A DNA stretch of 49,930 nt from Betaproteobacteria bacterium. GTDB taxonomy: Bacteria > Pseudomonadota > Gammaproteobacteria > Burkholderiales > Eutrophovitaceae. Shown one piece after another: positions 12,764 to 30,618 of the stretch. Where the stretch lies: positions 3,092,809 through 3,142,738 of the forward strand of contig CP070775.1 in NCBI GenBank assembly GCA_020346185.1, read 5' to 3'. Both the position numbers and the translations under genes were made by a program. Numbering within the stretch: position 1 is the stretch's first letter; each line of letters begins with the position of its first letter. The notes below the pieces were generated by a model that did not search any database, was not told the origin of the DNA, and saw only the letters and a program-made list of their open reading frames with translations.

Positions 12764-12785
12764 GACGTCGCTATACAACGACGAG
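12764..12785 (+). promoter_or_regulatory. Candidate enhancer/operator box GACGTCGC-N8-GACGAG (copy 1)
   Basis: The same motif occurs at 29027-29048, 74 vs 75 nt before the sigma54 -24 GG; it contains CGTC-N10-GACG dyad symmetry. Confidence 0.6.
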
Positions 12786-12835
12786 TTCGTTTCATCGCAT
12801 GTCATTACGTTCCTGTTTACAAAATACAAACGATA

Positions 12836-12852
12836 GGGGCACATGACTTGCT
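12836..12852 (+). promoter_or_regulatory. Sigma54 (-24/-12) promoter
   Basis: GGGGCAC-ATGAC-TTGCT with GG-N10-GC spacing; position is conserved relative to the riboswitch. Confidence 0.7.
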
Positions 12853-12922
12853 GAAGGCAAGGGGACACACTTCATAACGTAAAGCTGCGATGTCTGCGAC
12901 GATTACGATGTGGTGTGTCGAC

Positions 12923-13012
12923 GCCTGAAAAGGGCAAGCCAGTTCAAAAGGCTGGCAGGTAAAGCCTCTTGCCTAAATTCCGAAAACGGACATGGCAGCG
13001 GGGCCGCCAGGC
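12923..13012 (+). ncRNA. Variant c-di-GMP-I (GEMM) riboswitch
   Basis: gcctg-aaaaGGGCAAGCC...AAAGCCTCTTGCCTAA...ATGGCAGCGGGGCCGC-caggc follows the GEMM-I layout, but the P2 loop is CAAAA and GACGCAAAG is replaced by CAGGTAAAG. Confidence 0.7.
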
Positions 13013-13212
13013 AAACTCATCGTGCGACACGCGACCAGGTGCCGCCACGGTGAGAACGGCGGGCCCATGGTCGGGAGACCTGGTCAGAGTTGCAGCTATC
13101 GCACGAGCAGCTGTTCGCCGTCGTACTGCCTTCGCCTTTGCACCTGGTTCATCGCCCTTTCTCAGGAACAATGAGTCTCACTCAAATAGCTCAAGAAGAG
13201 GAGAACCTGAAA

Positions 13213-13566
13213 ATGAAAAAACGCATCACTTGGATCGTTTCGTTGCTTGCCCTTGCAGCAGTCCACTCTGCAATTGCAGCGCCTCCACACGGAAAGGCAA
13301 ACATCCTGCACTGCGGCTGCGTTCTCGACGCAGCAAGTGGAGATCCGGCCATGGCGTTCGTCAACGTGAATACCAGCAGCAAGGCGAAAGGCCACGCCCG
13401 GCACGGCGAAAGCAGCATCGACTCGTGCTATGACGGCGTTGACAGCTTCGTTGACTTTCAGCGAACTGCCGACGATTGCCAGATCGATGGCGCAGAGCTC
13501 GCCGGTCTTGCCCAATGCTCTTCAGAGCAAGCCGGTAACCCCTGTGGAGAACAAGTACTCGAGTAA
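13213..13566 (+). CDS. Secreted Cys/His-rich hypothetical protein (117 aa)
   Basis: RBS gaggagaa; Sec signal MKKRITW...AIA; 6 Cys; ILHCGC...GHARHGE motif. Confidence 0.85.
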   Translation: MKKRITWIVSLLALAAVHSAIAAPPHGKANILHCGCVLDAASGDPAMAFVNVNTSSKAKGHARHGESSIDSCYDGVDSFVDFQRTADDCQIDGAELAGLAQCSSEQAGNPCGEQVLE

Positions 13567-13587
13567 CCATCGGTACGGGACAACCGA

Positions 13588-13618
13588 AAATCGGGCACCC
13601 CACAAGGTGCCCGATTTG
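13588..13618 (+). terminator. Intrinsic terminator
   Basis: aaatcgggcacc-ccacaa-ggtgcccgattt. Confidence 0.8.
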
Positions 13619-13786
13619 ATACCAGGTTGAAGAACACGCAATGGGGTCGATTCGTCATGACCTTTCCCAACCGGCTTGACGATGATTGTGCGCACAGTCC
13701 GGTTCACGCTTAACACCTCATAAGCGTTTTTTAATGGCCGGTAAGTCGGTATGCTTGGTGTTTTCCAGCATTTTGAAAGCGGAAAA

Positions 13787-14608
13787 ATGAGCACCGATTT
13801 TTCCTACGACCCGGTTACTGCCGTGGACGAGGTCACCGCCACCGGCGACACGGCTGAGATGTTCGCCGATATACGACAGGCTATGGGCATCCCGCTGATC
13901 ACATCGATCTGGCGTGGGCTCGCCGGTATGGGTGATAGCCTGCCCACGGTGTGGAGAGCAGCAAAACCGATTTACCTGAGTGGACACACCGAGCCGGCAC
14001 TTGCACGCATCGTCGAACGAGCATGTCTGCCGATACCGGAACCGCTGGCACCGTCGGAACTCACGCGCGCCGGCATTGGCCATGGCGGCCCAAACGCGAT
14101 TCGCACCATCATCGATGCCTACAATCGATCCAACGGCATGAATCTGGTAGCACTCGCAGGGTTGATTTCATCGGAGAAAGGCAAGCGAGGAGACGCCGGC
14201 AGGCGCACGATGCCATCATGGGGAGCGTTTCCAGCGCTCAAGTCGAAACAAGAACTCGACAACGACACGTGGCACCTGATTCGTCAGGTCAACGCATTCG
14301 GCGCACCGGGCATCGATGCCCATGTCGCCACCCTTTGGCGCCATCTTGGTCACTGGCCGAATCTGCTTTCGCTGATCTACGGCGCCTTCGCGCCGAAACA
14401 TGCCGACGGATCGATCAGCGCCGCAGCAAAACGGATGGTTGAGCTAACGCACCAGGAAGCGGTACATCTTGCGGCCTGGCGCCGCGAAGACGTTGAGCTT
14501 TCCGAACAGGCTCACAAAACCATTACCGACTATGTCAGCGAGCCGGCGCTGGTAGCGCGTATGGTCACGATCGGCCATGCGCTGGCGCGATGGCTGCCGC
14601 GCCAGTAG
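13787..14608 (+). CDS. Hypothetical helical protein, DehI/AhpD-like two-repeat fold
   Basis: E..ATG..A..FADIR..MGIP....IWR.LA in the N-half, echoed by VATLWRHLGHWP in the C-half; family assignment tentative. Confidence 0.6.
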   Translation: MSTDFSYDPVTAVDEVTATGDTAEMFADIRQAMGIPLITSIWRGLAGMGDSLPTVWRAAKPIYLSGHTEPALARIVERACLPIPEPLAPSELTRAGIGHGGPNAIRTIIDAYNRSNGMNLVALAGLISSEKGKRGDAGRRTMPSWGAFPALKSKQELDNDTWHLIRQVNAFGAPGIDAHVATLWRHLGHWPNLLSLIYGAFAPKHADGSISAAAKRMVELTHQEAVHLAAWRREDVELSEQAHKTITDYVSEPALVARMVTIGHALARWLPRQ

Positions 14609-14703
14609 GAGTTCTTGGTTACCTCAACCGATTGCAGCTGAACGCCGGTGCGCACCGAGGCTAATGACTCCATCTCTTACACTCAGCCTGCACCAACTGG
14701 TCA

Positions 14704-15666
14704 CTAACTGACTTCGTTACGCACCAGCGCCGCTCGCACAAAATCCCGCTCCGTCACGATGCCAACGAGCAGTCCTTCGCGTACGACCAACATGCACCCC
14801 GTGTCCGCAGCGAGCATCTGTTTCATTGCTTGCTTCACGTCGAGATCCGGCGCAGCAGTAGCGAACGAAGTGATCATGATGTCGCGCACTGCGAGAGGCC
14901 CTTCGCTGCGTCGCCCGTGCTAGTGGAGTACTTCCCTTGCAGTTAGAAGACCGACCACTTTGCCCTGCATATCTTCGACCGGGACGTGACGGATGTGCTG
15001 CCACGTGTGCACAGGCTCATTGAGCTGTTGTTTTTCCAGCATCATGCGTACTGCTGCCGAACAATGTTCGACGCGCTCATCTTCCGAAACCATCGCAAGG
15101 TTTTGCAGCAACCAACGTGCGCCTGTCCGGTCAGACTGCACGCGTTGTTCGATAACCCCAATGTACCGCTCCACGTCTTTGCCGGCAACGCCGAGCTGGA
15201 CCAGACCTTCCCTTGCTGCCGGGATCAGCTCCTGCATCAGCAAATCGCGAGCGACGACGTGGCGTCCGTCCAACCACTGAAATCGCCCGTGCAAGCCGCG
15301 CCTTGCAGCCGAGAGCAGGTTGTTCTTTGCGTCCGTGAAGAACACTCTTTCACTGACATCGCCATATTGATCGTCGAGGCGAACCATCAACCCGTAGAAC
15401 AACGCCGCGTTGGCGACTTCGTCTAGCACGGTCGGGCCACCAGGCAAGACGCGGTTCTCAATGCGAAGGTGAGGTTTACCATCGGTAACCCAATAGCAGG
15501 TTCGATTCCATCTCCAAACCGTTCCGTTGTGAAGAGCGAGCGCCGCCAGTTCGGGTACTTCACCGCGCTCGATCATCAACTCGAGCGCTTCGATATCACT
15601 GAGGATGACCTGGGCGAACCCCCGTGCTTCTATCGCATTTGCCCTCATTACACGATGTCTGCCCAA
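14704..15666 (-). pseudogene. Remnant of a glutamate--cysteine-ligase-family/CBS-domain fusion gene
   Basis: LHNGTVWRWNR..KPHLRIENRVLPGGPT motif; N-terminus missing; in-frame TAG at 14920-14922 separates the CBS part (VGIVTERDFV); apparent internal deletion after PVHTW. Confidence 0.75.
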
Positions 15667-15832
15667 AGTAGAACCAGCGATTAGCGATTGAGAGATCTCG
15701 ACTGAATCAGAACCAATTATGCGTCAGATAGCACATCTTGCACCTGCCCGAACATGGGCATTTGCGACTCGGCCACGTTGGCACGGACCACTGTCACTAT
15801 AATTTCGACTGGCCATCCGAAGGATCGTTTCA

Positions 15833-17368
15833 ATGACCCGCGTGGCAATTGCAGCAAGCTCCGAGATTTCCGCCCAGGCTGGAGCGGAACTCGCCGACGC
15901 GGGGGGAAACGCCGTCGACGCAGTACTCGGTGCCGCACTCGTTTCGATGTGTACAGACATCGGTATCGTCAGCCCGGCAGGCGGAGCGCTGATCGCAATC
16001 TGGCCACCGACCGGCGACCCAGTCGTCATCGATGGTTGCCCGGAGATGCCGGGCCGCGGCGAGGACCCCGAACGATTCGGCGATGCTTCCTGGGAGGTTG
16101 TCTTCGACTATGGCGGTAAGGCTCGCCAGCGTGTTGGCTTCGGTTCGGTTGCAACGCCTGGCGCCTTCGCGGCAATGGGCGTCGCGTCCGAACAATTCGG
16201 CAGTTTGCCATGGTCACACGTGCTGCAGCCGGCTATTCGCTGGGCTGAACGGGGGTTCCCTTTGCGCGGCGGTGCCGCCGAGTATCTGAGTTACACGCAT
16301 GAGGCCATCTTCAGTTGGTCGCCAGACAGTTATCGCCTGTTGCACCACAGCGATGGCCGCCCACTCGCAGAAGGCGACAAGGTCTTGATCCCCGAACTGG
16401 CCGACAGTCTCATGCAAATCGCGTCGGATGGCGTCGACGCGTTCTACAGCGGAGAGCTTGGTCAGCGTATTGCCGCCGGCATCCAGGCTGAAGGCGGCCT
16501 GCTCAATCAGGCGGACCTGGATGCGTATCGCGCCGCACTGCATGAGCCGATCACACTCGATTTGGACGACTGGCGCATCGCAACCTGTCCGCCACCTTCT
16601 ATCGGCGGTCCGTGTCTGGCAGCGATGCTCCTCCTCCTAAGAAAATGCCCCGAGCATGAACTCAATACAGCCGCGATTCACTGGCTCGTCCACACTCAAC
16701 AAGCAGTTTTGAATTACCGTGCACAGAAACTCGACGCCGCCGGCGATGAATTGGCGGACGAAGTCGAACGTCTGCTGCAGATCGCCAAACTAGGTGAGTC
16801 ATCCAAATTGTTGTCGGCCCCGTCGACAATTCACGTCTCAGCTGTCGACAGCAACGGACGGGCGTGCTCGCTGACGGCCTCGGCCGGTTACGGCTCGGGT
16901 GCAATGGTCCCGGGCACCGGGATCTGGCTCAACAACTCGCTGGGTGAAGTCGACTTGCACCCAAAGGGGCTCAGCGGCATCGCGGCGGGGACGCGACTGC
17001 TATCAAACATGGCACCTACGGTCGCGCGCAGCAAGGACGGGACCTTGATTGCGATTGGCTCACCCGGCGCCTCCCGCATCACGACCGCCCTTGCTCAATC
17101 TATTTGGCATCACGTCCACTTCGGCAATTCACTCCACGCCGCCATCGAGCATCCGCGCCTTCACGTAGAGATCGGCGCCGAAGAGCCGGCGATTTCATAC
17201 GAGCGCGGCTTGCCGGTCACGCCCGGTAATGGCTTCGAACTGCGCGAGTTCGATCGCCTGAGTATGTACTTCGGTGGCGTGCAGGCCGTGCGTTGGAGCC
17301 CGTCAGAAGCTTTCACCGCCGTCGCCGATAGCCGCCGATCGGGCCACGTGGCCTACGGCGGAGAATAG
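15833..17368 (+). CDS. Gamma-glutamyltransferase family protein
   Basis: GGNAVDA, VATPG, STIHVSAVD (nucleophile Thr), NNSLGE, SNMAPT, GSPG, ADSRRSG. Confidence 0.9.
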   Translation: MTRVAIAASSEISAQAGAELADAGGNAVDAVLGAALVSMCTDIGIVSPAGGALIAIWPPTGDPVVIDGCPEMPGRGEDPERFGDASWEVVFDYGGKARQRVGFGSVATPGAFAAMGVASEQFGSLPWSHVLQPAIRWAERGFPLRGGAAEYLSYTHEAIFSWSPDSYRLLHHSDGRPLAEGDKVLIPELADSLMQIASDGVDAFYSGELGQRIAAGIQAEGGLLNQADLDAYRAALHEPITLDLDDWRIATCPPPSIGGPCLAAMLLLLRKCPEHELNTAAIHWLVHTQQAVLNYRAQKLDAAGDELADEVERLLQIAKLGESSKLLSAPSTIHVSAVDSNGRACSLTASAGYGSGAMVPGTGIWLNNSLGEVDLHPKGLSGIAAGTRLLSNMAPTVARSKDGTLIAIGSPGASRITTALAQSIWHHVHFGNSLHAAIEHPRLHVEIGAEEPAISYERGLPVTPGNGFELREFDRLSMYFGGVQAVRWSPSEAFTAVADSRRSGHVAYGGE

Positions 17369-17411
17369 TCCTAACAGCTCCGCCGATTGTTCTTCGTTAG
17401 CGAATTCTCTT

Positions 17412-17927
17412 TCACTGCCGCGCCTCTCCTTTGATTTCTTCCATATACCTAGACATCTTTGCGGCATCGAAGTAAACGTGGTGGGAGGTGCGCTTGGCTT
17501 CGTCGTTGAAAGTCACAAAGGCCGCCATATCCATCTCGATAGTCTTGCCCAATGCACGATGGGTGGCCACCCAGGTGAACTGCAGCGCCATGCTGTCGCC
17601 CTGCACCACCCCGTTTTTGTAGACGACTTTTGCTTTCCATGTCTTCAGCACACTATTGAAGAATGCAGTGATCTCGTCGATTCCTCGTTGAGTTCCTGTG
17701 GGCGAAACGCGTACGGCGTCGTCCGCGTACATGCCAAGATACAGCGAGAGGTCACCGATCTCGTTGCCATGGTTGTAATAGTCTCTTTGCGTGAACAGAA
17801 GCTCTCGTGTCCGGTCTTCCCGCTCCCCGGCGGCACTGTTTTCAATGACCGCGATGTTGCAGACAATGGCAACAACAAGCGCGACAGCAAAACCTTGCGC
17901 GGAAGATGTACTGGGCCGGTAGCTCAT
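17412..17927 (-). CDS. NTF2/SnoaL-like protein with N-terminal signal or TM segment
   Basis: YADDAV..G..GIDEI..FF pattern; C-terminal HVYFD. Confidence 0.7.
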   Translation of the reverse strand: MSYRPSTSSAQGFAVALVVAIVCNIAVIENSAAGEREDRTRELLFTQRDYYNHGNEIGDLSLYLGMYADDAVRVSPTGTQRGIDEITAFFNSVLKTWKAKVVYKNGVVQGDSMALQFTWVATHRALGKTIEMDMAAFVTFNDEAKRTSHHVYFDAAKMSRYMEEIKGEARQ

Positions 17928-17962
17928 GCGTGCCTCCTCTAGGGACTATCTCTACAAATCGA

Positions 17963-18835
17963 TTATCGAGGCATGGCATTCAACTGCCACTGCACTAACA
18001 CTGCGTTCGGATCGATCAGTGAATCGACAATCGCGAAATGGTCCAGACCGTCGGGGGCGAACAGTTGGTGCGGGTACCCCAGTTTGCTCCACTTGGCAGC
18101 CATCGCTTCTGATTGACGGTGGTACTCGTCGGATTCGTCTTTGCCGACAATCAGCAGCAACGGCGCCTCGATCGGGTACTCCAAAAGTGCCGGCGAGTTG
18201 CGCCTGGCCATCTCCGGATCCATACCCAACTTCTCATTGAGGTAGGAAAGTTGTATTGGCTCGAGTTCGAACAAACCCGATATTGCGCAGACGCCTTTAA
18301 CAAGATCTCGCGGTAATCCGGCTTCAAAATCCGGCCAATTGGTGCCCAGCAACATGGCCGCAAGGTGGCCGCCGGCCGAATGCCCGGTCACATAAATACG
18401 ATCCGGATCACCCCCGAAATCCTTTGCGTTGCGCCATAACCAAGCCAGAGCGGCGCGGTTTTGCCGCACGATTTCGTCCATGCTCCCGTGCGGCGCAAGA
18501 ACGTAATTGTTCACGACGGTGGTAATGCCGTGCGAAACCATCCCCTCGGCCACATAGGAACAATCGCTTTTGTCCAGCGAGTACCAGTAGCCACCATGGA
18601 TAAACACGTAGATCGGTGCCCCAGAAATCGCTGCTGGAAAGATATCCAGCCTCTCCGTCGCCTGCTGACCGAATGCCACGTCCAGCCGGCAGTTCAGTTT
18701 TTCCCGTGTGCCCTTGCTCCAGTCAGCCCATGCCGCAAACCGATCGATATAATCCGGAAAGCGCTGGCGATTGTTGTATTGAGCGTTGAGTCCGGCCTGG
18801 TCGTAGTCTTGCCAGACTGTTGCCGAAGAACTCAT
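17963..18835 (-). CDS. Alpha/beta hydrolase, arylformamidase (kynurenine formamidase)-like
   Basis: HGGYW, GHSAGG, SGLFEL, DHF. Confidence 0.9.
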   Translation of the reverse strand: MSSSATVWQDYDQAGLNAQYNNRQRFPDYIDRFAAWADWSKGTREKLNCRLDVAFGQQATERLDIFPAAISGAPIYVFIHGGYWYSLDKSDCSYVAEGMVSHGITTVVNNYVLAPHGSMDEIVRQNRAALAWLWRNAKDFGGDPDRIYVTGHSAGGHLAAMLLGTNWPDFEAGLPRDLVKGVCAISGLFELEPIQLSYLNEKLGMDPEMARRNSPALLEYPIEAPLLLIVGKDESDEYHRQSEAMAAKWSKLGYPHQLFAPDGLDHFAIVDSLIDPNAVLVQWQLNAMPR

Positions 18836-19314
18836 TTAACCGCTGCTCTGGTCCGTTCCTGGATACGCGCTTTCTGGCCCGGCGTGGGCATTTCAGATCC
18901 GTCTTGGCGGACAGTTCTGTAAACCGCGGGGCTGGTCAGCTCCAGCAATTCGAGGTCTTCCGAGTATTCCCGCAATTCGTGCAGAGTGTTTCCGGGTATG
19001 GTGACCGTATCGCCCTGCTCATAGCGAAACTCGCCATGGTCGGCGTAGTAAAAGCTGACCCAGCCTTTGAGCACCATGGCGAACTGCAGGTTGACGAGAT
19101 GCCGGTGCAAGCCATTGTGCCCACCGTGCAGATGCTTGGCCTTGATGATATGAGCGTGAAAATCACCATGGGTCGCATCGGCCAGGCCGAGGTCCCGATA
19201 AACGAACTCCTCTCGCAGGCCATCGGTCTCGTATTCCGCGCCTGTGGAGCGGCTTACGACAAATCGATACTCCTGAGAGCCTTTCGCGGGGCCGGGGTTG
19301 AGAGTATTACTCAT
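18832..19314 (-). CDS. Cupin domain-containing protein
   Basis: GLR..F.YRDLG, HRH..LQF..VLKGW, GD...IP...HE; RBS ggagg; ATGA overlap with the hydrolase. Confidence 0.85.
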   Translation of the reverse strand: MSNTLNPGPAKGSQEYRFVVSRSTGAEYETDGLREEFVYRDLGLADATHGDFHAHIIKAKHLHGGHNGLHRHLVNLQFAMVLKGWVSFYYADHGEFRYEQGDTVTIPGNTLHELREYSEDLELLELTSPAVYRTVRQDGSEMPTPGQKARIQERTRAAVK

Positions 19315-19708
19315 GGGATCCTCCGTTTTCATCAGCGTCGGTATCGGCCGGCCGTGAACCCGGCACCAGCATTCGGCGCCGCCCTTCCAGCAAGCCGGCA
19401 TGGAACAAAATACCTGTTCTCGCCGGACGAATTCGCAATATTGCCGAGCAACCATGCCATATCAGATACGAGGCGAGGCACAGCGCTCAATTTACTCCCG
19501 ATCACAGCTTCATGCCAGAGTCACAGATCACAACAGGTAAGGAATCGCTTGACAACCCGTGTTCGACCAGCACGTTGACGGAGATCAATGCTCGGCACCA
19601 AGCGATCGATATGCTAGCTAGGGTGCGTCAGTAGTCTTGCTGATCAGGCGACGCAGGGCAATGGACGGGTGTCAAACGCTGCCAAGTTTGATAACGGCCG
19701 GGGACACA

Positions 19709-21544
19709 ATGCAAACCACAGACGTCATTAGCAGCAACGAAGCCGGCGACCTCCCGGGGCTGCTACGCTGCCGCGCCGCGCGCGCGCCGCAGGCGGTCGC
19801 TTATCGCCAATTCGAAGAATCCACCAATTCATGGCGAGCCTACACATGGAAAGAGATCCAGCAGGAGATCGGCCGATGGCGCACAGCTCTGAACGCAGAG
19901 GGGCTCGAACGCGGCAATCGCGTTGCAGTGATGCTCAAGAATTCCGTGCAGTGGGTGTTGTTCGAACAAGCCGCTCTTTCCCTCGGGCTGGTTGTCGTAC
20001 CTCTTTATAGCAGGGATGCCGCAGGCAACGCCGCCTTTATCCTGGGCAATTCCGGAAGTCAGTTGGTCCTGCTCGGCGACAGCCAACAATGGCAGAAGAT
20101 CGTTCAGCATCGGGAATTGTTCCCCGATCTCGCGACCGTCATCACGCTCGATCGTGCACCCGAAGCCGAACGCGAGTTGGACGTTCGTTACGTCGAAGAC
20201 TGGCTGCCAGACAAAATGTCGGTGCAGCCAGTACATAATGCTCCTGATGATCTCGCCACAATTTGCTACACCTCCGGAACAACCGGTCGGCCAAAAGGCG
20301 TCATGCTGTCTCACCGGAACATTCTCTCCAATGCAGAGGCAATTGTCAGCACAGTTCCGGCATACCGCGAAGACGTGTTTCTCTCTTTCCTGCCGCTTTC
20401 TCACATGCTCGAGCGTACAGGGGGTTATTACTATCCGATGTTGTGTGGAAGCGAGGTGGTTTTCGCGCGTTCCGTTGAGACGGTCGGCGAAGATCTCCAG
20501 CAGATACGCCCGACCGTGCTGATTTCGGTGCCGCGCATGTTCGAGCGGGCTTACGCTCGTATCGAATTCGCCCTGGCAAAGAAAGGCAAGCTCGCACAGC
20601 GTTTATTCAAACTTGCTGAGAAAGTGGGTTGGAATCGCTTTGAGCGACTGCAAGGTCGCAGAGACAAACTCGATTTGGGCCAGCGAATTCTGTGGCCGAT
20701 ACTGCGAATCATGGTAGTAAACAAGATTCTCAGCCAGCTTGGTGGTCGTTTGCGCATGACCATCAGTGGTGGCGGACGCCTCGATGAGCAAATTGCAAAG
20801 TGTTTTCTCGGCTTTGGCCTGCCACTGTTGCAGGGATACGGGCTGACCGAGTCATCCCCCTGCGTCAGCAGCAACGTGGAAGAAGACAATTTGCCAGATT
20901 CTGTCGGCCGGGCATTGCCTGGGGTGAAAGTGCGGCTGGGTGAAAACAACGAGCTACTGGTCGGCGGTCCCGGCGTCATGCTTGGTTATTGGCAACGCCC
21001 CGACGCTACCGCAAATACCTTCGATGCGGAGGGCTGGCTGCGCACCGGAGACATTGCTGAATTCGTTGAAGGACGGATCTTTATCCGCGGACGGATCAAG
21101 GACATCCTTGTTACCTCGACCGGAGAGAAAGTGCCAAGGGCCGACCTTGAATCGGCGATAAGTCGGGACCCGCTGTTCGAACAAGTCGTCGTTGTCGGCG
21201 AGGCCAAACCATACCTCACCGCACTGATCGTCGTGCAAGGCGAAGCCTGGAAGCAGTTTGCTTCAGAACTAGGCCTCGACGCCGAATCCCCGACCACTCT
21301 TGCTTCCATTGAGGCAAAGAAAGCTGTCCTCAAACGGGTCGCAACCCTCCTTAAAGAGTTTCCCTCCTACGCCCGGGTGCGCGACACCTACCTGACCCTC
21401 GAGCCATGGACCGTCGACAATGGTCTGATGACGGCAACGCAAAAACTCAGGCACGCAAAAATCCTGGAGCATTTCGAAGACGTTATAGAAACACTCTATG
21501 CAGGGCATGAGCGACGACCAAAGGCCAAAAGGGAAAACATATAA
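19709..21544 (+). CDS. Long-chain fatty acid--CoA ligase (AMP-dependent synthetase)
   Basis: YTSGTTGRPKG, SFLPLSH, QGYGLTE, RTGD. Confidence 0.93.
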   Translation: MQTTDVISSNEAGDLPGLLRCRAARAPQAVAYRQFEESTNSWRAYTWKEIQQEIGRWRTALNAEGLERGNRVAVMLKNSVQWVLFEQAALSLGLVVVPLYSRDAAGNAAFILGNSGSQLVLLGDSQQWQKIVQHRELFPDLATVITLDRAPEAERELDVRYVEDWLPDKMSVQPVHNAPDDLATICYTSGTTGRPKGVMLSHRNILSNAEAIVSTVPAYREDVFLSFLPLSHMLERTGGYYYPMLCGSEVVFARSVETVGEDLQQIRPTVLISVPRMFERAYARIEFALAKKGKLAQRLFKLAEKVGWNRFERLQGRRDKLDLGQRILWPILRIMVVNKILSQLGGRLRMTISGGGRLDEQIAKCFLGFGLPLLQGYGLTESSPCVSSNVEEDNLPDSVGRALPGVKVRLGENNELLVGGPGVMLGYWQRPDATANTFDAEGWLRTGDIAEFVEGRIFIRGRIKDILVTSTGEKVPRADLESAISRDPLFEQVVVVGEAKPYLTALIVVQGEAWKQFASELGLDAESPTTLASIEAKKAVLKRVATLLKEFPSYARVRDTYLTLEPWTVDNGLMTATQKLRHAKILEHFEDVIETLYAGHERRPKAKRENI

Positions 21545-22496: not shown

Positions 22497-22554
22497 GACC
22501 CGGGTTGATTCATTGAATCGCAAATTTCGAACGCTTCCCTGACCCCTGGCACTC

Positions 22555-23280
22555 ATGGAATCTCACATGGCTGACACCACCCCTCCAGAATCTCCCGACT
22601 CCCTCCTTGAAAAAGTAGAGGGTGCCGAGCGACTTTTCCTGTCGGGCCGACGCAGCCGGGAGGCGGATCTCGTCAGCGCGGTGACGGTGTTCCTCGAGTT
22701 TCTGCGTGGATTCGAAAGTTTCGATTTTGAACAGTCCTGCGTAACGGTGTTCGGATCTGCACGCTTCGGCGAGGACCACGAATACTACAAACTGGCCCGA
22801 GACATGGGCCGCGAGCTTGCCAAGATGGGATACGCCGTGATGACCGGCGGCGGGCCCGGATTGATGGAGGCGGCAAATCGCGGCGCCAAGGAGGCGAGCG
22901 GGCTGAGTCTCGGTTGTAATATCCAGCTACCGAGCGAACAGAAACCAAATCCGTATCTGGATAAGTTCATCAAATTCGAACATTTTTTTGTTCGCAAGGT
23001 GATGCTGGTCAAGTATTCCACGGCGTTCGTGGTTATGCCAGGCGGTTTCGGCACCCTGGACGAGGCCTTCGAGGTCGCCACTTTGATACAGACAGGAAAG
23101 CTTGACCGTTTTCCGATTGTCGGGTTGGGCGGCGACTTCTGGACTCAGCTTCGCAAATTCGCGCGTGAGACAATGCTGACAAAAGGCGTCATCAGCGAAG
23201 ACGACATCGCTTTCATCCATCCCACCGAGAGCGTCGAGGAAGCCCTGCAGTTCATTCCACCTCCGCCACAGCGCCAATAG
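22555..23280 (+). CDS. LOG family (TIGR00730) nucleotide phosphoribohydrolase
   Basis: VFGSAR, TGGGPGLMEAANRGA, FFVRK, PGGFGTLDE. Confidence 0.93.
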   Translation: MESHMADTTPPESPDSLLEKVEGAERLFLSGRRSREADLVSAVTVFLEFLRGFESFDFEQSCVTVFGSARFGEDHEYYKLARDMGRELAKMGYAVMTGGGPGLMEAANRGAKEASGLSLGCNIQLPSEQKPNPYLDKFIKFEHFFVRKVMLVKYSTAFVVMPGGFGTLDEAFEVATLIQTGKLDRFPIVGLGGDFWTQLRKFARETMLTKGVISEDDIAFIHPTESVEEALQFIPPPPQRQ

Positions 23281-23517
23281 TTCTTGGTCCATCACGCACA
23301 ACGTTCTCGTCACTGAACTCTGCCGTCACCCTGAGATAGATCGATCTACCGGCTCACCCTCTGCACTTGCCTTGTTTTGAGGGGCCTGCACACTCTTATC
23401 CAGATTGCGAATACTCAACGACCTACCATGGCCCGACCCGCAAGCAGGTACAGTCTGCCGTAGCCTGGAGCAAGCGGCAGTGATAACCTGAACGCTCAGA
23501 GAAACCGGAGGACACGC

Positions 23518-24318
23518 ATGGCACTGTACGCAGCGCAATTCGTAGGATCGATCCCCGAAAACTACGACCAGTGGCTGGTACCCCACCTGTTTGACGGTTA
23601 CGCTGACGACCTGGCCCACCGTGTGTTGGCCCTGCAGCCCAGAACAGTGTTGGAACTGGCAGCGGGCACCGGGATCCTTAGCCGAAAACTACGCGACATT
23701 CTCGCCAGCGGCAGTGATCTTGTTGCCTCGGACCTGAATGCCCCTATGCTGGATATCGCAAGATCAAAGTTTCAGCCGGGCGAATCGGTACGGTTCGACG
23801 AGGTGGATGCAACCGACCTGCGTTTTGGTGACGCGAGTTTTGATGCCGTTGTTTGCCAGTTTGGCGTCATGTTCTTTCCTGACAAAGCGCGTTCCTACAG
23901 CGAGGTCCACCGTGTCCTCAAACCAGGCGGCAGTTATTTGTTCAACGTCTGGGATTCATGGGAGCAAAACCCTTTCGCACAGATTGCGCACGGAATCGTA
24001 GAAGCAACTTTTCCAGATGACCCACCCGGGTTCTACAAAGTGCCGTTCGGCTACCACGACACCGGTGAGATCAGGAAGGCCGTTGCCAGTGCAGGTTTCT
24101 CCGAAGTGACGGTAGAACATTTACCAATGACCTCCACGATACCTTCGGCGGCGAACTTCGCGAAAGGCCTGGTGTTTGGAAATCCACTTCACGATGAAAT
24201 CGTTGCGCGGGGTGGAAATCCGGAGGAAGTATGTGCAGGAGTTGAACAGGCCATCGAAAGAAATGTCGGAACGGATCTGTCACTGCAGGCGTTAATCGTC
24301 CACGCGTACAAATACTGA
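23518..24318 (+). CDS. Class I SAM-dependent methyltransferase
   Basis: VLELAAGTG, FDAVVCQFGVMFFPD, RVLKPGG; RBS ggagg. Confidence 0.92.
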   Translation: MALYAAQFVGSIPENYDQWLVPHLFDGYADDLAHRVLALQPRTVLELAAGTGILSRKLRDILASGSDLVASDLNAPMLDIARSKFQPGESVRFDEVDATDLRFGDASFDAVVCQFGVMFFPDKARSYSEVHRVLKPGGSYLFNVWDSWEQNPFAQIAHGIVEATFPDDPPGFYKVPFGYHDTGEIRKAVASAGFSEVTVEHLPMTSTIPSAANFAKGLVFGNPLHDEIVARGGNPEEVCAGVEQAIERNVGTDLSLQALIVHAYKY

Positions 24319-25197
24319 TCAATCCAGCTTCTGCTTCTGAATCGTGTTTCAAGAAAGCCGACGTAACACACTTTTCCCGTAATGAGAAGCCAGGTGCTGC
24401 CCGACTTGGCAGCGACTGCCTTGCTGACCTTGAACAGATCTTGATGCGGATCAAAGAGCCTGCGCTTTGATTGGCCTGGTCGGAGAATTCGTTTTCTGAA
24501 GAACTCACTCACGGGTATCGTAGAACAACGTTATTCGATCGCTGCGTTGTCGCTTGCTACGACACTCGCATCCGTCGTCCGGGCAAACGCATCTGAACTG
24601 GCCGAAGACAAAGAATTCCATACTTCAAATGCAAACTCTGTCACGGCGCCATACAGCAAGAAGAGGTAAGTTCTGGCGCGCTGTTTTGATCACCTCAGCA
24701 CGTTCAGCTGGCAGCGCAGGTATCCGTCACCGCAAACACAAGGGATTTCGTTTCCCAGCCGATTCCCGCCTTTGGTACGCGATTTTATTCAGGGTCGACG
24801 GGCGAGCGCATCGCCTTCGCCCCGCCCTTCGGACCTAACCTGCACGGCGTCGTTGGGCGCCCGGCAGTAACGGTCGAAGGGTTTACCTAACCCAATACCA
24901 TGCTGAAAACCCTTAAGGGAATGGAATGGTCCGAAGCAGCGCCCAATGTCGCATCACCGCCCCTAGGCATGGGTGCCGGGTCTATACATTACTATGAGCA
25001 AAAAGGCCCGGAAATTCGGCGCAAGATCATTCTCCGCGCCAAGGCGACGCCATGTTCATCCAGGGTCCTGATTCTGACGACGCTTAGCGATATTGGCCGT
25101 ACCCGGATGCAAGCCGCGATCGTTTTGACCTTTCGCAAAAACCTGATCGATTGCTGCTGGCTTATACTGTCCCCACATCGCCAGCAGGAAATCGGTT

Positions 25198-26304
25198 GTG
25201 CGCTGCCCATTCTTTTTTCTTGTCATTTTGTTGTTATCCGCGTGTAGTGCGGACAAAACCGCCAACGCTCGCCTTCCCTTCGCTACGACAGAGATCACCT
25301 CGTTTAATCAGCCTTGGGCCATGAGTTTTCTGCCCGACGGGCGGCTGCTGGTCACCGAGAAGGAGGGTCACTTGTACATCGTGACCCAGGATGGCACCAA
25401 GTCGAAGCCTTTGCGCGGCGTTCCGGATGTTGTTTACGGCGGCCAGGGTGGGTTGGGTGATGTCGTACCGCATCCTGACTTCGCCTCGAACCGTTTCGTC
25501 TACACTAGTTTCGTTGAGGCCGGTACGGGCGGTGTCAGAGGTGCTGTCGTCGCGCGGGCGAAGCTCCAGCTGAATCATGACGGCGGAAGACTGGAAGATC
25601 TCGAGATCATCTGGCGAGCGGTTCCGAAAGTGTCGGGTGGCTATCACTTTGGTCACCGCATCGCCTTCTCGCCAGACGGCTTTCTGTTCATATCATCGGG
25701 CGAGCGCAACAAGTTCAACCCGTCGCAGAACATGAAACAGAACCTCGGCAAGATCGTGCGCTTACATGATGATGGTTCTGTACCCGCCGATAACCCGTTT
25801 GCAAATTATGGTGGTGTGGCGGCGCAGATCTGGTCACTGGGCCACCGAAATCCTCTGGGACTCGCTTTCGACGAAAAGAGCCGCCTGTGGAATGTCGAGA
25901 TGGGGCCTCAGGGTGGCGACGAACTGAACCTCGTTATTCGCGGCGCCAATTACGGATATCCGATCGTCTCAAATGGTGATCACTACGGCGGCCGGGAAAT
26001 TCCCGATCACGAAACGCGACCCGAATTTGAACCACCCAAAGTCTGGTGGACACCCGTGATTTCACCCGCTGATCTGATGTTCTACTCGGGGGCGCTGTTT
26101 CCGGAATGGAAGGGAAACGCGTTCATCGCGGGCTTGTCCGCAGCGGCCTTGATACGAGTAAAAATTGAAGGTGATACTGCGGCCGAGGCGGAACGTTTCA
26201 AAATGAACGCACGAATACGTGCGGCCAGACAGGGGCCGGGCGACGCGATTTGGGTACTGGAGGATGGGCGTGGCGGGCGGCTGCTCAAACTAACGCCTGA
26301 TTGA
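25198..26304 (+). CDS. PQQ-dependent sugar dehydrogenase (GSDH/YliI-like), lipoprotein
   Basis: LSAC lipobox; PWAMSFLPDG, GQGGL, GHRNPLG, GPQGGDELN, NYGYP. Confidence 0.92.
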   Translation: MRCPFFFLVILLLSACSADKTANARLPFATTEITSFNQPWAMSFLPDGRLLVTEKEGHLYIVTQDGTKSKPLRGVPDVVYGGQGGLGDVVPHPDFASNRFVYTSFVEAGTGGVRGAVVARAKLQLNHDGGRLEDLEIIWRAVPKVSGGYHFGHRIAFSPDGFLFISSGERNKFNPSQNMKQNLGKIVRLHDDGSVPADNPFANYGGVAAQIWSLGHRNPLGLAFDEKSRLWNVEMGPQGGDELNLVIRGANYGYPIVSNGDHYGGREIPDHETRPEFEPPKVWWTPVISPADLMFYSGALFPEWKGNAFIAGLSAAALIRVKIEGDTAAEAERFKMNARIRAARQGPGDAIWVLEDGRGGRLLKLTPD

Positions 26305-26497
26305 TTCTAAGCGGCGCGAACCGAGCCAGGCTCACGTTCGTGCTGTTAGGCGCAGAACGCGAGACCCGACTCCAAGCCTGTGCAAGACGTAAACCATCCG
26401 CGATACGCCGCTTAGATACATCGTCAGGCCTTGTACCCTGGAATTTCGCAGTTCGTCTCGCAGGACTCGTCCATTCAGTTAATCGATCGCGTTGCCC

Positions 26498-27202
26498 CTA
26501 TGACAGTAGCCAACCGCCATCGACATCGACGGTCGTTCCAGTCACAAAGTCGTTCTGAATCACAAACAAAATTGCTTGCGCCACTTCATCAGCAGTGCCT
26601 GCCCGAGGGATGATGTTTCCAGCCGTTGTCTTCGCATAGAAAGCGTTACGTTCCTCGCCTTCAAGAGCAACCATCGGCGTGTCTATCACGCCTGGCGAGA
26701 CAACATTGATTCGTTTTGGCGCAAGTTCTCGCGTGATGGCTCGCACCAGCGCCTCAACGGCACCGCCTACGGAGCCGATCGCGACCTGCCCCGGCCGGGT
26801 CTTGCGCGCCGGTGCGCCGCTGACCAAAACGATAGCGCCGTCGTCGGGTAAATGCTCAGCGCCGTAGCGAACGACATTCGCATAACCCCAAAGCTTGTCA
26901 AAGGACCCCTTGTAGCCATCCATGTCCATTTCGAGAAACGGGCCAACTGCGCGCGCACCGCCGGTCGCAGCGCTCACCAGAATGTCATAGGGCGCGCATT
27001 CTTTGAGTACCGACTGCACGGCATCGCGGTCGAGCACATCGCATCTCTTCAGAGTGATACCCGCCGGCAAATCAACCGTGCTATCGGGGTTGCGGCTAAT
27101 TGCGATCACTCTTGCACCCAATGCGACGAGTTGCCTTGCGGCAGCGAGGCCAATGCCGGAGGTCCCGCCAAAAATCACTGCTTTCTTTCCCGCTACGTCC
27201 AT
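26498..27202 (-). CDS. SDR family oxidoreductase (atypical)
   Basis: GGTSGIG, RINVVSPG, VTG...VDGG; lacks YxxxK. Confidence 0.88.
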   Translation of the reverse strand: MDVAGKKAVIFGGTSGIGLAAARQLVALGARVIAISRNPDSTVDLPAGITLKRCDVLDRDAVQSVLKECAPYDILVSAATGGARAVGPFLEMDMDGYKGSFDKLWGYANVVRYGAEHLPDDGAIVLVSGAPARKTRPGQVAIGSVGGAVEALVRAITRELAPKRINVVSPGVIDTPMVALEGEERNAFYAKTTAGNIIPRAGTADEVAQAILFVIQNDFVTGTTVDVDGGWLLS

Positions 27203-28003
27203 CTTTAATCGTCCTCCTCTTGACTTGTTAGATACTCGTTAATCGTTCTTTTTCGACACGCGGTCAACGCCGTACGCAGCGAGAGCACACTATGCCATTG
27301 TTCCCCCTTCAGCAACATATACAACTTAAGTGACTGTCTTTACTGCGCAGTCATTCAGGGAAACCTGGTTACCACCTCTTGAGTACCTGTCTTCCCGCTT
27401 GGTAGGCCACGGGCTGGAATTAATGATTTACCAGTTGATCGGGCGTTCACGCGGCTTGTTGACAGGATTGCGACAGCGGATCACCGAGGCGGTGAGGCGA
27501 CCGAGACCTTGAATGGCGAGGCATTCCCGGCAGTTAGCGCAATCTGGGTCAAAAGCTACACTGCCTAGAATGGGAGCAGCCTAGCATTTTTCCAAAAATT
27601 TAGTGCGCTGCCCCGATTTACAACCACGCCATCCTATATTGCCAGCAACAAATCACTCGGATCGCTCTTGTGCTCAGCATTGCCATCAGCGTTTTATAGC
27701 GAGACCAGATAATAGAAAAGCAGTGCGGACCGCACCTTGATATCCGCGAATAGCTCGTCGGCGCGATCAAAATACTTCATACGCTCGCGTTCAGAAGAAA
27801 CCAACATGGCCGCACAATGTACATATTTTGTACAATCGAATATTCACTTTACATTATCATGCATAAATCATGTAGAAATATAGAAAAATATATTGGCATT
27901 TTGTACACATCTATATATCCTTTGTGGCAACATTAGAAAGCGACAAAGTCTTAGTTTCAAAGTATCAGCCACATATCTTTCAATTCACATCAAGGAACTC
28001 ATT

Positions 28004-28438
28004 ATGATCTCGCGTTCACTACTCGCCTTCCTCGGGCTACTTCTCTCCTCGGCTGCTGCTGCCGCCCCCAACTGGACCATCCTTGCCGGCGACATTGCCA
28101 ACAGCACGTACCTCGACAAAGCGTCAGTGGCCAAGCATGGCGATTTCATGCGGGCGGACGTACTACGAAATTACGACGAGGTGATTACGCTCGGTAACGA
28201 TCCAGTTACAGGGGCCGACATGTATCCCCACCGCTCGGTCAAAGTCACGTACCACGTCGACTGTGGGAGCGGCATGGTTGCCATGACTAGCTGGAAGATG
28301 TTCGAAGGCAGTCTTGGAAACGGAGAAGTGGTGTGGGCAGACAAACTTTGGGGCAAACCCAATCTCACTTCTGCCAATGACGCTGAAACGCGCGACGTTT
28401 TGCGCTCGACGTGCGCTACCAAGAGCGTTTCGCGCTAA
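28004..28438 (+). CDS. Secreted protein, surface-adhesin protein E-like
   Basis: Signal peptide; W.....YLD..SV...S......VDC...C pattern; RBS aagga. Confidence 0.7.
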   Translation: MISRSLLAFLGLLLSSAAAAAPNWTILAGDIANSTYLDKASVAKHGDFMRADVLRNYDEVITLGNDPVTGADMYPHRSVKVTYHVDCGSGMVAMTSWKMFEGSLGNGEVVWADKLWGKPNLTSANDAETRDVLRSTCATKSVSR

Positions 28439-29026
28439 ACAGGTTTTGACCGACACCGTACGGGTTGATGAAACCCCGCTGGTTTTGAAGAGCGGCGTGG
28501 TAGGGCCGGCTGATGGGGCATGTCGGGAAACAAGCCCCCCTTTTTCTGTGAGCAGACCACGAAGCAGGCAATCGGCAGCCGGTTGTGAAAAGCGACCGAT
28601 TCGCTCATCGAGCTTCCCTGGCAGATACATTTGCTGTCCAGAATCACGGGAGGCCCTCTAAATCTTCGCGTTGATAGATCGTGACATGTGGTTGCTGGCT
28701 CTAATGGCTCGAGGCCGACGACGTCACGATAATGCGGCTGAGGAGGTCATCCAAACTAGACGACAAAAACAGGTCGGGCACTCAACAGATTACCACGGCT
28801 GTTGGTGTCAGCATGTTTTTCTTTCGACTCCAAAAGCACATTAGCCATCGGCAGCTTGCACTGTCTCGCTACCTATCTGACAAGTGCTGGTCAGCACTGG
28901 ACAGGCTCAAATACACCTGATACGGCCCTTGACATTAACTGCGACATCTTGAGATTCAACAGTCGCTGACTGGACGACAAGCGCAGAGGAAATACGCACA
29001 CCCCACACCGAGTCCTGCAGCAAGTT

Positions 29027-29048
29027 GACGTCGCCGAGAGGAGACGAG
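29027..29048 (+). promoter_or_regulatory. Candidate enhancer/operator box GACGTCGC-N8-GACGAG (copy 2)
   Basis: Matches 12764-12785 in sequence and in distance to the sigma54 site. Confidence 0.6.
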
Positions 29049-29099
29049 CGCCGTGGCAGTCGATCTCGTAAGCAGTTCTTTTCTTTCGACAAGCATCTA

Positions 29100-29116
29100 C
29101 TGGCATGGCACTTGCC
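29100..29116 (+). promoter_or_regulatory. Sigma54 (-24/-12) promoter
   Basis: CTGGCAT-GGCAC-TTGCC, GG-N10-GC. Confidence 0.8.
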
Positions 29117-29187
29117 ATATGCCAACGCAGTGCGCCTGTTGCGCTACCGCAGTCGATGCGGATAAGACTAAGACAATGGGCAACTCA

Positions 29188-29275
29188 GCCTGAAAAGGGC
29201 AACTCATCCGAAAGGGTGCGACGCAAAGTCAATGGCCTAACTCCGCTCGCGGACATGGCGGCATGGCTACCAGGC
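29188..29275 (+). ncRNA. c-di-GMP-I (GEMM) riboswitch
   Basis: gcctg-aaaaGGGCAACTCATCC-GAAA-GGGTGCGACGCAAAG...GGCCTAA...ATGGCGGC..GGCTAC-caggc: GNRA loop, GACGCAAAG junction, receptor and P1 all present. Confidence 0.92.
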
Positions 29276-29793
29276 AAGCACGTGGAGTCGTGTGCCCAGC
29301 GCATCGGCTAAAGTAGCAATCGCGCTCGCGTTGCGCGGCAGTCGGGGTCCAATGTGACCCGATTGCACCGACTGACGCGATCGTGCCTGTGGCAACCACG
29401 TAAGCCTTCCTGAGCGTCCCCCCTCTCGCTGAGAACTGACGCAGCCTCCCTTTGGGGAGGCCGACTGACTGCTGATGGAGGGGGAGAGACTTTTGATTTA
29501 CCGCCACGACATGCACCCTCCTTGGCAAGGGGAGTTGCTCATGCAGATCGCCCCGGTCGCCAACTGGTCGCCCGCCGCGCCCTGTTTCGCCAGTCGCCAA
29601 GAGGGTTTTGCTCCCTTCAAAGATGTTCCTGAGTTGCTGCCACCCTGATGAGATGACCCGCGAATGCCCTCTCGCAACAATCGAGGGGCCATTGCATTGG
29701 CAACTCAGAAGAATCATTCGGGTCATCCTGCCGCTGCGCTGGATAGCGGCGATGAAAAACGTGATATCGATCATTACCTAGAGGAGAATCATC

Positions 29794-30543
29794 ATGAGAC
29801 GAGTATTTATGGTTGCGGCCCTCACAGCTATGTTCACAGTCAGTGGGGCAATGGCGCAGAACACGAACAACGGCAATGGCGCAAAAGTCGGCAAGCAGGG
29901 ATTTCTGCTCAACGTCATCGCGTTCGAGAACTGTCCTCAGGGCGAGTTCCTCGACTCGCATCGCCATCAGATCGCCGTTAAAGCAAACCACCAAGGGAAC
30001 GCCACAAACAAGTCGGAAAAGACGAACAAGATCTTTCTGCGCTCCGGCGAAGACTTTTGGGTCCAGGATGGCAATGCGTGCGACAAAGGCGGCGCGCAAT
30101 TCGAGCTTCCCATCACCGATGCCAACTGTTCGAACTGCGGCGACGTCACATCGGAATCAGACCCGGAACCGACCTTCACGGAGTACGAAGTTCGAGCGCG
30201 CATGGTCGGTCAACCCGGTGGCAAGGTCACTGTTACCAGCTGCACCGAAATGTTGGTCGAGGATGAGAACGGCGGAGATCCGACACTCGAATCGTTCTGC
30301 TCGGTCGGCGAAAACAACGTCTGGGTCGGAGAACGCAAGGTCGGCAGCGGCAAGACGCAGAACAAATGGGACAATGTCAGCACTGAATTACTGACAGTCT
30401 GCATCGACACCACTGGTGATGGCAGCTGCGACCAACGCATCGGTCTATTCGATTCGAGTGGCAAAGATTACTGGTGGAACTGGGATACCGAAAAACGCCC
30501 TCACGTCCAGCTCGTGTTTTTCCCTGCCTCGGGCGCCGAGTAA
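29794..30543 (+). CDS. Secreted Cys-rich hypothetical protein (249 aa)
   Basis: RBS gaggagaa; Sec signal ending AMA; 8 Cys; DTTGDG Ca-binding-like loop; C-terminal QLVFFP strand. Confidence 0.88.
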   Translation: MRRVFMVAALTAMFTVSGAMAQNTNNGNGAKVGKQGFLLNVIAFENCPQGEFLDSHRHQIAVKANHQGNATNKSEKTNKIFLRSGEDFWVQDGNACDKGGAQFELPITDANCSNCGDVTSESDPEPTFTEYEVRARMVGQPGGKVTVTSCTEMLVEDENGGDPTLESFCSVGENNVWVGERKVGSGKTQNKWDNVSTELLTVCIDTTGDGSCDQRIGLFDSSGKDYWWNWDTEKRPHVQLVFFPASGAE

Positions 30544-30586
30544 GAAACACGTCTGCGCGGCTGGCCGCCGCTCGTAGCAGTCATAG

Positions 30587-30618
30587 GCAAAGCCCTTGCG
30601 AGTTCGCAAGGGCTTTGC
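30587..30618 (+). terminator. Strong hairpin / probable terminator
   Basis: gcaaagcccttgcga-gt-tcgcaagggctttgc. Confidence 0.7.

Follow-up and report, generated by a model that had tools for sequence, protein, structure and literature searches.

Why should two genes for unrelated secreted proteins be led by the same regulatory elements, in the same order and at almost the same distances? We asked this of two loci in a 49.9-kb stretch of DNA (the window) that lies within the single-contig genome of a Betaproteobacteria bacterium (G000; 3,608,118 bp, 57% G+C). The product of the locus 1 gene is called the P1 protein here and that of the locus 2 gene the P2 protein; helix P1 of the riboswitch aptamer is a separate usage. 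Each locus has a dyad-symmetric site upstream of a sigma-54 promoter element, and the predicted transcript begins with a riboswitch aptamer for cyclic di-GMP (c-di-GMP). Judging from the sequence, we consider it probable that each gene is under a two-layer control cassette, in which a sigma-54 promoter with an activator dyad is followed by a c-di-GMP riboswitch. The parts are all of known kinds. The novelty is in their combination and in their portability.

A first-pass annotation of the window had described these parts as standing in the same order at both loci, and all of them are present where it placed them. The spacings that it gave are confirmed as well, with 74 and 75 nucleotides (nt) from the upstream box to the GG of the promoter and 72 and 73 nt from the GC of the promoter to the aptamer. 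Its dual-input reading, in which an activator and c-di-GMP both act on these genes, is supported by the predicted elements described below. The features of locus 1 are as follows (aa, amino acids; ORF, open reading frame).

12764..12785, plus strand: upstream activator site (the box of the first-pass annotation), GACGTCGC-TATACAAC-GACGAG, from the sequence; a genome-unique pattern.
12766-12783, plus strand: core dyad CGTC-N10-GACG, centre 64 nt from the GG.
12812..12818, plus strand: T-rich element CCTGTTT in the dyad-promoter interval, from a GG-anchored alignment of 12 cassettes.
12837..12852, plus strand: sigma-54 -24/-12 promoter GGGCACATGACTTGCT, GG at 12838-39 and GC at 12850-51; 10/11 consensus.
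12863..12921, plus strand: putative stem-loop GACACAC...GTGTGTC in the 5' leader, after the predicted start and ahead of the aptamer, read from the sequence.
12923..13011, plus strand: c-di-GMP-I (GEMM-I) aptamer of class B (defined below), a divergent copy; RF01051, 41.7 bits.
13012..13197, plus strand: structured expression platform without intrinsic terminator (terminator scan, RNAalifold).
13198..13205, plus strand: Shine-Dalgarno (SD) sequence GAGGAGAA.
13213..13566, plus strand: P1 ORF, 117 aa, with a signal-peptide-like N terminus of 22 aa (AIA|A) and 6 Cys, from the sequence.
13590..13615, plus strand: 3' hairpin after the P1 gene, followed by TTTGA (a weak U-tract), read from the sequence.

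Locus 2 has the following features.

29027..29048, plus strand: upstream activator site GACGTCGC-CGAGAGGA-GACGAG, from the sequence; the same genome-unique pattern.
29029-29046, plus strand: core dyad CGTC-N10-GACG, centre 65 nt from the GG.
29074..29087, plus strand: T-rich element AGTTCTTTTCTTTC, in the same alignment columns as CCTGTTT of locus 1.
29101..29116, plus strand: sigma-54 -24/-12 promoter TGGCATGGCACTTGCC; 9/11 consensus.
29188..29274, plus strand: c-di-GMP-I (GEMM-I) aptamer of class B; RF01051, 66.8 bits.
29275..29780, plus strand: long structured leader of about 505 nt, with no terminator, known RNA family or repeat.
29781..29788, plus strand: SD sequence GAGGAGAA.
29794..30543, plus strand: P2 ORF, 249 aa, with a signal-peptide-like N terminus of 21 aa (AMA|Q) and 8 Cys, from the sequence.
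30587..30618, plus strand: 3' hairpin after the P2 gene, without a U-tract, read from the sequence.

Neither 3' hairpin was called by the terminator scan.

Both promoter elements follow the GG-N10-GC pattern with TGGCAC-N5-TTGCW-like flanks, and they were scored against an 11-position consensus. Transcription is predicted to start near 12863 at locus 1 and near 29127 at locus 2. The strict sigma-54 pattern occurs 21 times in the genome, which also carries rpoN (one Sigma54_DBD match) and four full Sigma54_activat enhancer-binding proteins. We compared the loci with their relatives from genomes and metagenomes, which gave 12 distinct cassettes once identical sequences had been collapsed. Ten of these 12 class B cassettes have a site that matches at least 9 of the 11 positions, 62 to 86 nt before the aptamer.

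The 22-nt box pattern has two occurrences on both strands of the whole genome, and both are in the window. Its shorter form, GACGTCGC-N8-GACG, has three, and the third is likewise upstream of a sigma-54 promoter. The box had been expected to be kept in orthologous loci. This holds for a position-fixed dyad, YGTC-N10-GACR, centred 63 to 65 nt from the GG, but not for the literal GACGTCGC-N8-GACGAG, which is found only in this genome. Eleven of the 12 cassettes have GTC-N10-GAC in the 200 nt that precede the GG, always centred 63 to 65 nt away from it. In 2000 shuffles, the mean at that window was 0.01 per set, and the maximum was one scoring locus. The N10 spacers of the dyads are only 48% identical. 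Therefore, selection, and not recent ancestry alone, appears to maintain the dyad arms. In the alignment of the 12 cassettes, a T-rich element (CTGTTT or TTGTTTT) occupies fixed columns between dyad and promoter, and the promoters that follow the glrR-like gene described below have a comparable element. By analogy with the glmY promoter, which requires integration host factor (IHF), this element is a possible DNA-bending site of the IHF type.

An Rfam search (cmscan) of the 49.9-kb window gave only two matches above the gathering score, and both were to RF01051 (c-di-GMP-I, GEMM-I; gathering score, 35 bits). The E-values were 5e-11 at locus 2 and 7e-5 at locus 1. By score (at least 35 bits) both RNAs are members of the family, and the GEMM-type assignment made from the letters is upheld by these covariance-model matches. 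The locus 2 aptamer has the GAAA tetraloop and the helix P1 GCCUG/CAGGC. In the locus 1 aptamer, which is bounded by GCCTGAAAAGGGCAA...CCAGGCAA, AAAA replaces the GAAA tetraloop and CAGGU replaces GACGC; helix P1 and both hairpins are kept. Both aptamers keep the unpaired G that precedes a paired GC, the base that separates c-di-GMP-selective from cGAMP-selective GEMM-I RNAs. Helix P1 varies among the relatives at L049, where a single G-C pair has become A-U, and at L023, which has a single U-G wobble. The aptamers of loci L059 (about 854-941) and L035 (2270-2355) have A in place of the unpaired G, at Rfam model position 11; the same change reportedly makes Geobacter GEMM-Ib riboswitches prefer 3'3'-cGAMP.

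Rfam c-di-GMP-I matches were found in 16 of the 41 related genomes searched, this genome included. The aptamers of the genus form two sequence classes. Class A precedes type IV pilin-like genes, and class B (GCCTGAAA.GGGCAA...CCAGGC) precedes P1 or P2 genes only. This genome has a third riboswitch (C1:1138544-1138632, L001; 75.5 bits), which is of class A and stands before type IV pilin/pseudopilin-like genes. It lacks the box, and its upstream region has no proper GG-N10-GC. Therefore, the module is not a property of all GEMM elements in this genome. A check of whether the genome's c-di-GMP-I matches share the box and the sigma-54 site had been proposed; they do at both window loci but not at this pilin-side element. 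Upstream of L001 is a block, TGCCG.TCGTCGGCA...GACCG...CTTGCGG...TGGCAC, that is conserved in nine class A loci of the genus. In most class A loci the -12 GC is at N9 or missing, which puts their sigma-54 dependence in doubt.

How might the aptamer act on its gene? The terminator scan found no intrinsic terminator in either leader. A terminator was rejected as the platform; of the two "terminator-like" calls at locus 1, one is the dyad and the other is within the aptamer on the minus strand. No other Rfam family was found in either leader, where only sub-threshold chance matches occurred. The locus 1 platform is single copy in the genome; its CCTGGTT and CCCTTTCTCAGG segments are complements of the two helix P1 strands. 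In the P1 subgroup that includes locus 1, the consensus pairs both strands of helix P1 with downstream CCUGGU and CCUU..UCAGG. For one P1 subgroup of five sequences, RNAalifold gave helix P1, a multi-hairpin domain and an 8-bp UCCUUCUG/CAGAAGGA helix that buries the SD. This anti-SD:SD helix is unchanged in four of the sequences and is kept via a one-sided change in the fifth; it is followed by CUGG, a complement of the 3' strand of helix P1. At locus L050, both the SD region AACCAGGAG and the helix P1 3' strand have a complement in CUCCUGGUU. With helix P1 enforced, the SD paired with a CU-rich anti-SD of at least 5 nt in eight of the nine modelled leaders, locus 1 being a weak exception. These models suggest translational control by competition between helix P1 and the anti-SD. 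That the ligand-bound state is OFF has about even odds. Constrained folding was set aside as a guide to the ON/OFF direction, because SD accessibility barely differs between the two states.

The locus 2 leader is about 280 nt longer than that of its orthologue in genome G003 (L028). The extra part holds several self-contained C-rich/G-rich hairpins and no ORF with a family match. An origin as a repeat or insertion was rejected, as the genome has no other copy.

Public sequencing data bear on locus 1. Twenty runs from sediment, seawater, soil and biofilm hold part of it, and six of them are RNA libraries. Contigs of four RNA runs (two studies) cover 13074-13332, 13385-13573, 13406-13636 and 13494-13633, and RNA contigs also cover 12600-12734 and 12655-12889. 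Such contigs show neither starts nor strand, DNA carry-over is possible, and uncovered stretches are uninformative. They give a weak hint that the locus 1 gene is transcribed and are neutral on the promoter.

Which activator would bind the dyad? The third GACGTCGC-N8-GACG in the genome (C1:1013830, minus strand) is 84 nt before TGGCACTATAGTTGCT and immediately follows an operon for a kinase, a 203-aa protein without a family match and a response regulator. The kinase (499 aa) has the architecture HAMP-HisKA-HATPase. The 449-aa regulator has REC, Sigma54_activat and HTH_8 domains and is GlrR/QseF-like (gene at C1:~1013900-1015270); its top NCBIfam match is GlrR (NF011695) at 616 bits, and the next is NtrC at 420. 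The other three activators of the genome are one bona fide NtrC and two NtrC-family regulators without specific assignment. Among the 20 largest ORFs scanned in the window, none is an activator gene. The GlrR consensus is given as TGTCN10GACA in the available part of PMC3045617, and the cassette dyad fits it. The dyad with the sigma-54 promoter element TGGCATCATCATTGCT follows the GlrR-like gene, at 75 nt from dyad centre to GG, in G000 and in all three orthologous loci that reach far enough; a fourth is cut by the contig end. From these matches, the GlrR/QseF-like regulator probably serves the cassette.

The dyad is not confined to riboswitch genes. A YcgR-like PilZN-PilZ gene (C1:3445531, minus strand; L066, L068-L071) has a perfect TGTC-N10-GACA 63 to 64 nt from the conserved sigma-54 promoter CGGCAYATCAMTTGCA in five of five loci. 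Its PilZN match scores 61.8 bits and its PilZ match 19.6 bits, the latter under the cut-off, and genome G005 has no homologue of it. The dyad of this gene ties the same putative activator to the reading of c-di-GMP. A gene for a membrane protein of 122 to 129 aa with no Pfam family (C1:148621, L067; L075-L080) has CGTC-N10-GACG 85 to 86 nt from the conserved sigma-54 promoter TGGCACGGCNGTTGC. This dyad is present in seven of seven loci from six genomes, with two paralogues in genome G001. The dyad offsets of about 64, 75 and 86 nt are one helical turn apart each, as an activator site on one face of the helix predicts. The set of genes with dyad and sigma-54 site is wider than the riboswitch genes of the regulon that had been proposed, and it takes in the PilZ gene, the membrane protein gene and the gene after the activator. 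A further dyad at a 64-nt offset (C1:2033200), within the coding sequence of a kinase, was discounted as probably due to chance.

We propose the following mechanism. Sigma-54 polymerase would bind the -24/-12 element and open the promoter only with an enhancer-binding activator on the dyad, which is centred 64 to 65 nt upstream of the GG (about -88). The T-rich element between dyad and promoter would probably help through DNA bending. The likeliest activator is the GlrR/QseF-like regulator, in which case this first layer would report the signal sensed by its operon kinase. The nascent leader would fold into the c-di-GMP-I aptamer and a long, structured platform that lacks a terminator. Ligand binding would lock helix P1 (GCCUG/CAGGC) and free the downstream segments that are complementary to its strands. 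These segments overlap or adjoin the anti-SD, and ribosome access would thereby be altered, so that control of translation is the most likely outcome. Tentatively, high c-di-GMP would turn the genes OFF. The output would be two unrelated, small, disulfide-rich secreted proteins, and the cassette would be a heritable unit of the genus that was copied onto the P2 gene.

How, then, did one cassette come to lead two genes? The proteins themselves had been called not visibly homologous, and a profile-profile comparison (hhalign) agrees: it aligned only their signal peptides, at a probability of 4.9%. Within the genus, the P1 gene is present in four of eight genomes and the P2 gene in two of eight, and all six genes are preceded by a class B aptamer and a GG-N10-GC element. 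Among 301 genomes sampled from the order, only three have the P1 gene, all of them within this genus. A metagenome scan for P1 relatives yielded 15 loci. Ten of the 14 that were searched have the aptamer; L058, with no upstream DNA, was left out. No aptamer, sigma-54-like site or dyad was found at L052 and L061 (identical upstream), L060 or L062. L062 is not a real P1 gene, and some members of the P1 family are without the cassette altogether. A match to a group II intron catalytic domain (53.8 bits; L051, 1935-2010, minus strand) is present downstream of one metagenomic P1 gene.

P2 homologues are common (131 at E<=1e-3). On genome contigs, a c-di-GMP-I aptamer precedes them at five of five proteobacterial loci and at none of four loci in Bryobacteraceae, Actinomycetota and Nitrosopumilaceae. 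These last are distant relatives (L037-L040; 32 to 37% identity) from metagenome-assembled genomes (MAGs), those of Nitrosopumilaceae being archaeal. They lack the riboswitch; therefore, the protein family is far wider than the cassette. In other Gammaproteobacteria, outside the genus, the aptamers of P2 homologues are of a class A-like type. The sigma-54 part is also different there: L034-L036 have no good site, and L033 has a 9/11 site only at 144 nt upstream and without a dyad. In one gammaproteobacterial MAG, the intergenic region ahead of P2 homologues has divergent, back-to-back c-di-GMP riboswitches (L034, 1847-1924 minus and 2183-2268 plus; L035, 1929-2006 minus and 2270-2355 plus), and one riboswitch of these pairs is a match to RF03167, the GGC variant.

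The P2 aptamers of the genus have 72 to 93% identity to the P1-type aptamers, compared with 56 to 61% to the aptamers of P2 homologues elsewhere. Therefore, the module looks transplanted, and the earlier idea of a portable module gains backing from these identities. In the simplest reading, the P2 gene of this lineage appears to have received a copy of a P1-type cassette. That copy would be old or small, because blastn detects no similarity between the two window loci beyond the motifs (the pairwise alignment is patchy). We hold only tentatively, as somewhat less likely than the alternatives taken together, the larger view of a mobile cassette that is grafted onto unrelated genes, replaced an older riboswitch at P2 and wires a GlrKR/QseEF-like system and c-di-GMP into a two-input gate. 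If this view is true, the same activator drives a YcgR-like receptor, and the regulon would set both the reader of c-di-GMP and the outputs that it gates. It would then also be the first sigma-54-riboswitch gate to be described, and an instance in bacteria of a regulatory module that was transplanted.

Several observations weigh against the two-layer cassette, and they have to be considered together with the alternatives. The compared loci share kinship; thus, the counts above are non-independent and overstate the support. SD accessibility with helix P1 enforced or free is 0.45/0.40 at locus 1 and 0.66/0.57 at locus 2. In the most radical alternative, the GG-N10-GC motifs are not promoters, and the leaders come from unrecognised sigma-70-type promoters or from upstream read-through. 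RNA contig X17 (depth 2.5; 12655-12889) crosses the predicted start of locus 1, for which read-through or contaminating DNA may account. The promoter of the P2 orthologue L028 matches at 7/11 positions, with GTC-N7-GAC-N4-GAC and no strict dyad, and the P1 loci L050 and L051 read AG at the -24 GG with dyad and aptamer intact. (L050 and L051 are nearly identical metagenome contigs, and their AG promoter may be dead or altered.) Relaxed sigma-54-like sites are frequent (963 in 7.2 Mb), and dyads are found within 200 nt of 20 of the 963, versus about 13 expected. This genome-wide enrichment is weak; therefore, the case rests on the position and conservation of the dyad. The -24/-12 element stands at a fixed distance from dyad and aptamer in 10 of the 12 diverged cassettes, and no sigma-70-like site was found in 12600-13700 or 28900-30700, although by a simple consensus scan (shuffle mean, 0.5). 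We regard it as highly improbable that these motifs are not promoters. A decayed aptamer at locus 1, one that no longer senses c-di-GMP and leaves the P1 gene to the sigma-54 layer, is a more serious alternative but still rather unlikely. That aptamer lacks a GNRA loop and scores only 41.7 bits, compared with 66 to 85 for its relatives, and its AAAA and CAGGU changes are seen in none of the orthologues, which all keep the GAAA/GACGC consensus. However, it is above the gathering score and keeps helix P1, both hairpins and the unpaired G, and its platform resembles those of the orthologues in length and motifs.

The dyad may also be read by a regulator other than the GlrR-like protein, such as NtrC, an AtoC/ZraR-like response regulator, the 496-aa NtrC-family protein or a dimer that is not an activator. 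Two of the four full activators are without specific assignment, and the 616 bits of the GlrR-like regulator are under the GlrR equivalog cut-off of 763. Neither the kinase nor the 203-aa protein matches a GlrK or QseG model; GlmY (RF00128) was not found in the genome by a search whose Escherichia coli control was positive and which did not extend to RF00083; and each promoter has one dyad versus three sites at E. coli glmY. An orthologue of the regulator is present in four of five genomes searched, and the exception, G001, has the dyad before two membrane protein genes and no GlrR-like match at E<=1e-100 (the genome is 89% complete). Set against this are the presence of the dyad directly after the GlrR-like gene in four genomes, its match to the GlrR consensus in the available text of PMC3045617, and the 64/75/86-nt phasing to sigma-54 promoters, which fits an activator better than a repressor. 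A different reader of the dyad is unlikely in our view. Finally, the two cassettes could have been assembled independently, with functional constraint producing the shared spacing. Such convergence would sit well with the absence of blastn-detectable similarity outside motifs and aptamer and with the low phylogenetic signal of aptamers that are about 88 nt long. It sits less well with genus P2 aptamers that are up to 93% identical to the P1 type, with helix P1, flanks and offsets (74/75 and 72/73 nt) that are identical between the cassettes, and with the presence of P2 in only two of eight genus genomes, which fits a recent arrival that acquired a local cassette. We consider convergence improbable, and the two-layer cassette remains the preferred reading.

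Sigma-54 activators of the FleQ or VpsR type bind c-di-GMP and so join both signals on motile-sessile genes. Their c-di-GMP input is at the protein level, whereas in the cassette the nucleotide would target the transcript of the activator-dependent promoter, and the two inputs would be physically separate and modular. In most descriptions, a riboswitch follows a constitutive or sigma-70 promoter. A full-text literature search, of incomplete coverage, returned no description of a c-di-GMP riboswitch behind a sigma-54 activator-dependent promoter. Riboswitch and sigma-54 terms co-occur in PMC3627812 and PMC2996986, only incidentally in the parts available. The closest relatives among known systems resemble one half of the cassette each. 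In the accessible text of PMC4545359, the Vibrio cholerae Vc1/gbpA leader, as here, has an RF01051 aptamer before the gene of an exported protein, and the same gene has a second input at the transcription level, cAMP-CRP. The GEMM-regulated outer-surface proteins of Geobacter (PMC2996986, from the part available) likewise have an RF01051 leader aptamer, and GEMM-led genes are duplicated there. Unlike in both of these, the transcription input here would be a sigma-54 promoter with a position-fixed dyad, the leaders extend about 200 and 505 nt past the aptamer without a terminator, and the outputs belong to no described family. The other half resembles the GlrK/GlrR (QseE/QseF)-glmY/glmZ system of Enterobacteriaceae as presented in the available part of PMC3045617: the regulator architecture and the operon order of kinase, small protein and regulator are alike, and TGTC-N10-GACA precedes a sigma-54 promoter, from which a likely bending site separates it. 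Here, in contrast, the targets would be riboswitch-led mRNAs, the PilZ gene and membrane protein genes instead of the sRNAs GlmY and GlmZ. There is one dyad instead of three, the regulator is under the equivalog cut-off, and the host is a Burkholderiales-type bacterium.

With both layers working, the cassette would be a natural gate of compact size with two inputs, a two-component signal at initiation and a second messenger on the leader. For experiments, it offers a candidate activator with a name, a 16-bp site whose helical phasing is strict, two aptamers that differ in quality and a small regulon that includes a PilZ receptor. It would also serve as an example of a regulatory module that moves between genes, and it flags two conserved families of secreted, disulfide-rich proteins as tied to c-di-GMP.

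What are the two outputs? From their sequences, both proteins are inferred to be small, disulfide-rich and secreted. Their signal-peptide-like N termini were read from the sequence and were modelled as helices. Six Cys are invariant in 27 sequences of the P1 family. For the P2 family, an alignment of 26 homologues shows eight Cys at 90% conservation or more, and four of these are invariant. Neither protein has a Pfam or NCBIfam match at threshold; a Teneurin EGF match of P1 (17 bits versus a cut-off of 65) was sub-threshold and was disregarded. The structural model of P1 is confident and all-beta (predicted local distance difference test [pLDDT], 83.4), and none of its 83 listed Foldseek matches in the PDB reached E<=0.001. 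The P2 model is poor (pLDDT, 46.1) and too weak for a structure search, and P2 has no PDB relative by sequence. The ESM Atlas held nothing usable for P1 or P2. An extracellular or matrix role, as had been suggested for both, is plausible. Sediment and seawater metagenomes contain members of both families. The window also encodes, about 600 nt before the locus 2 box, a 181-aa Adhesin_E protein (PF16747, E = 7e-13; 27893-28438, plus strand), which is another surface protein adjoining the locus 2 cassette.

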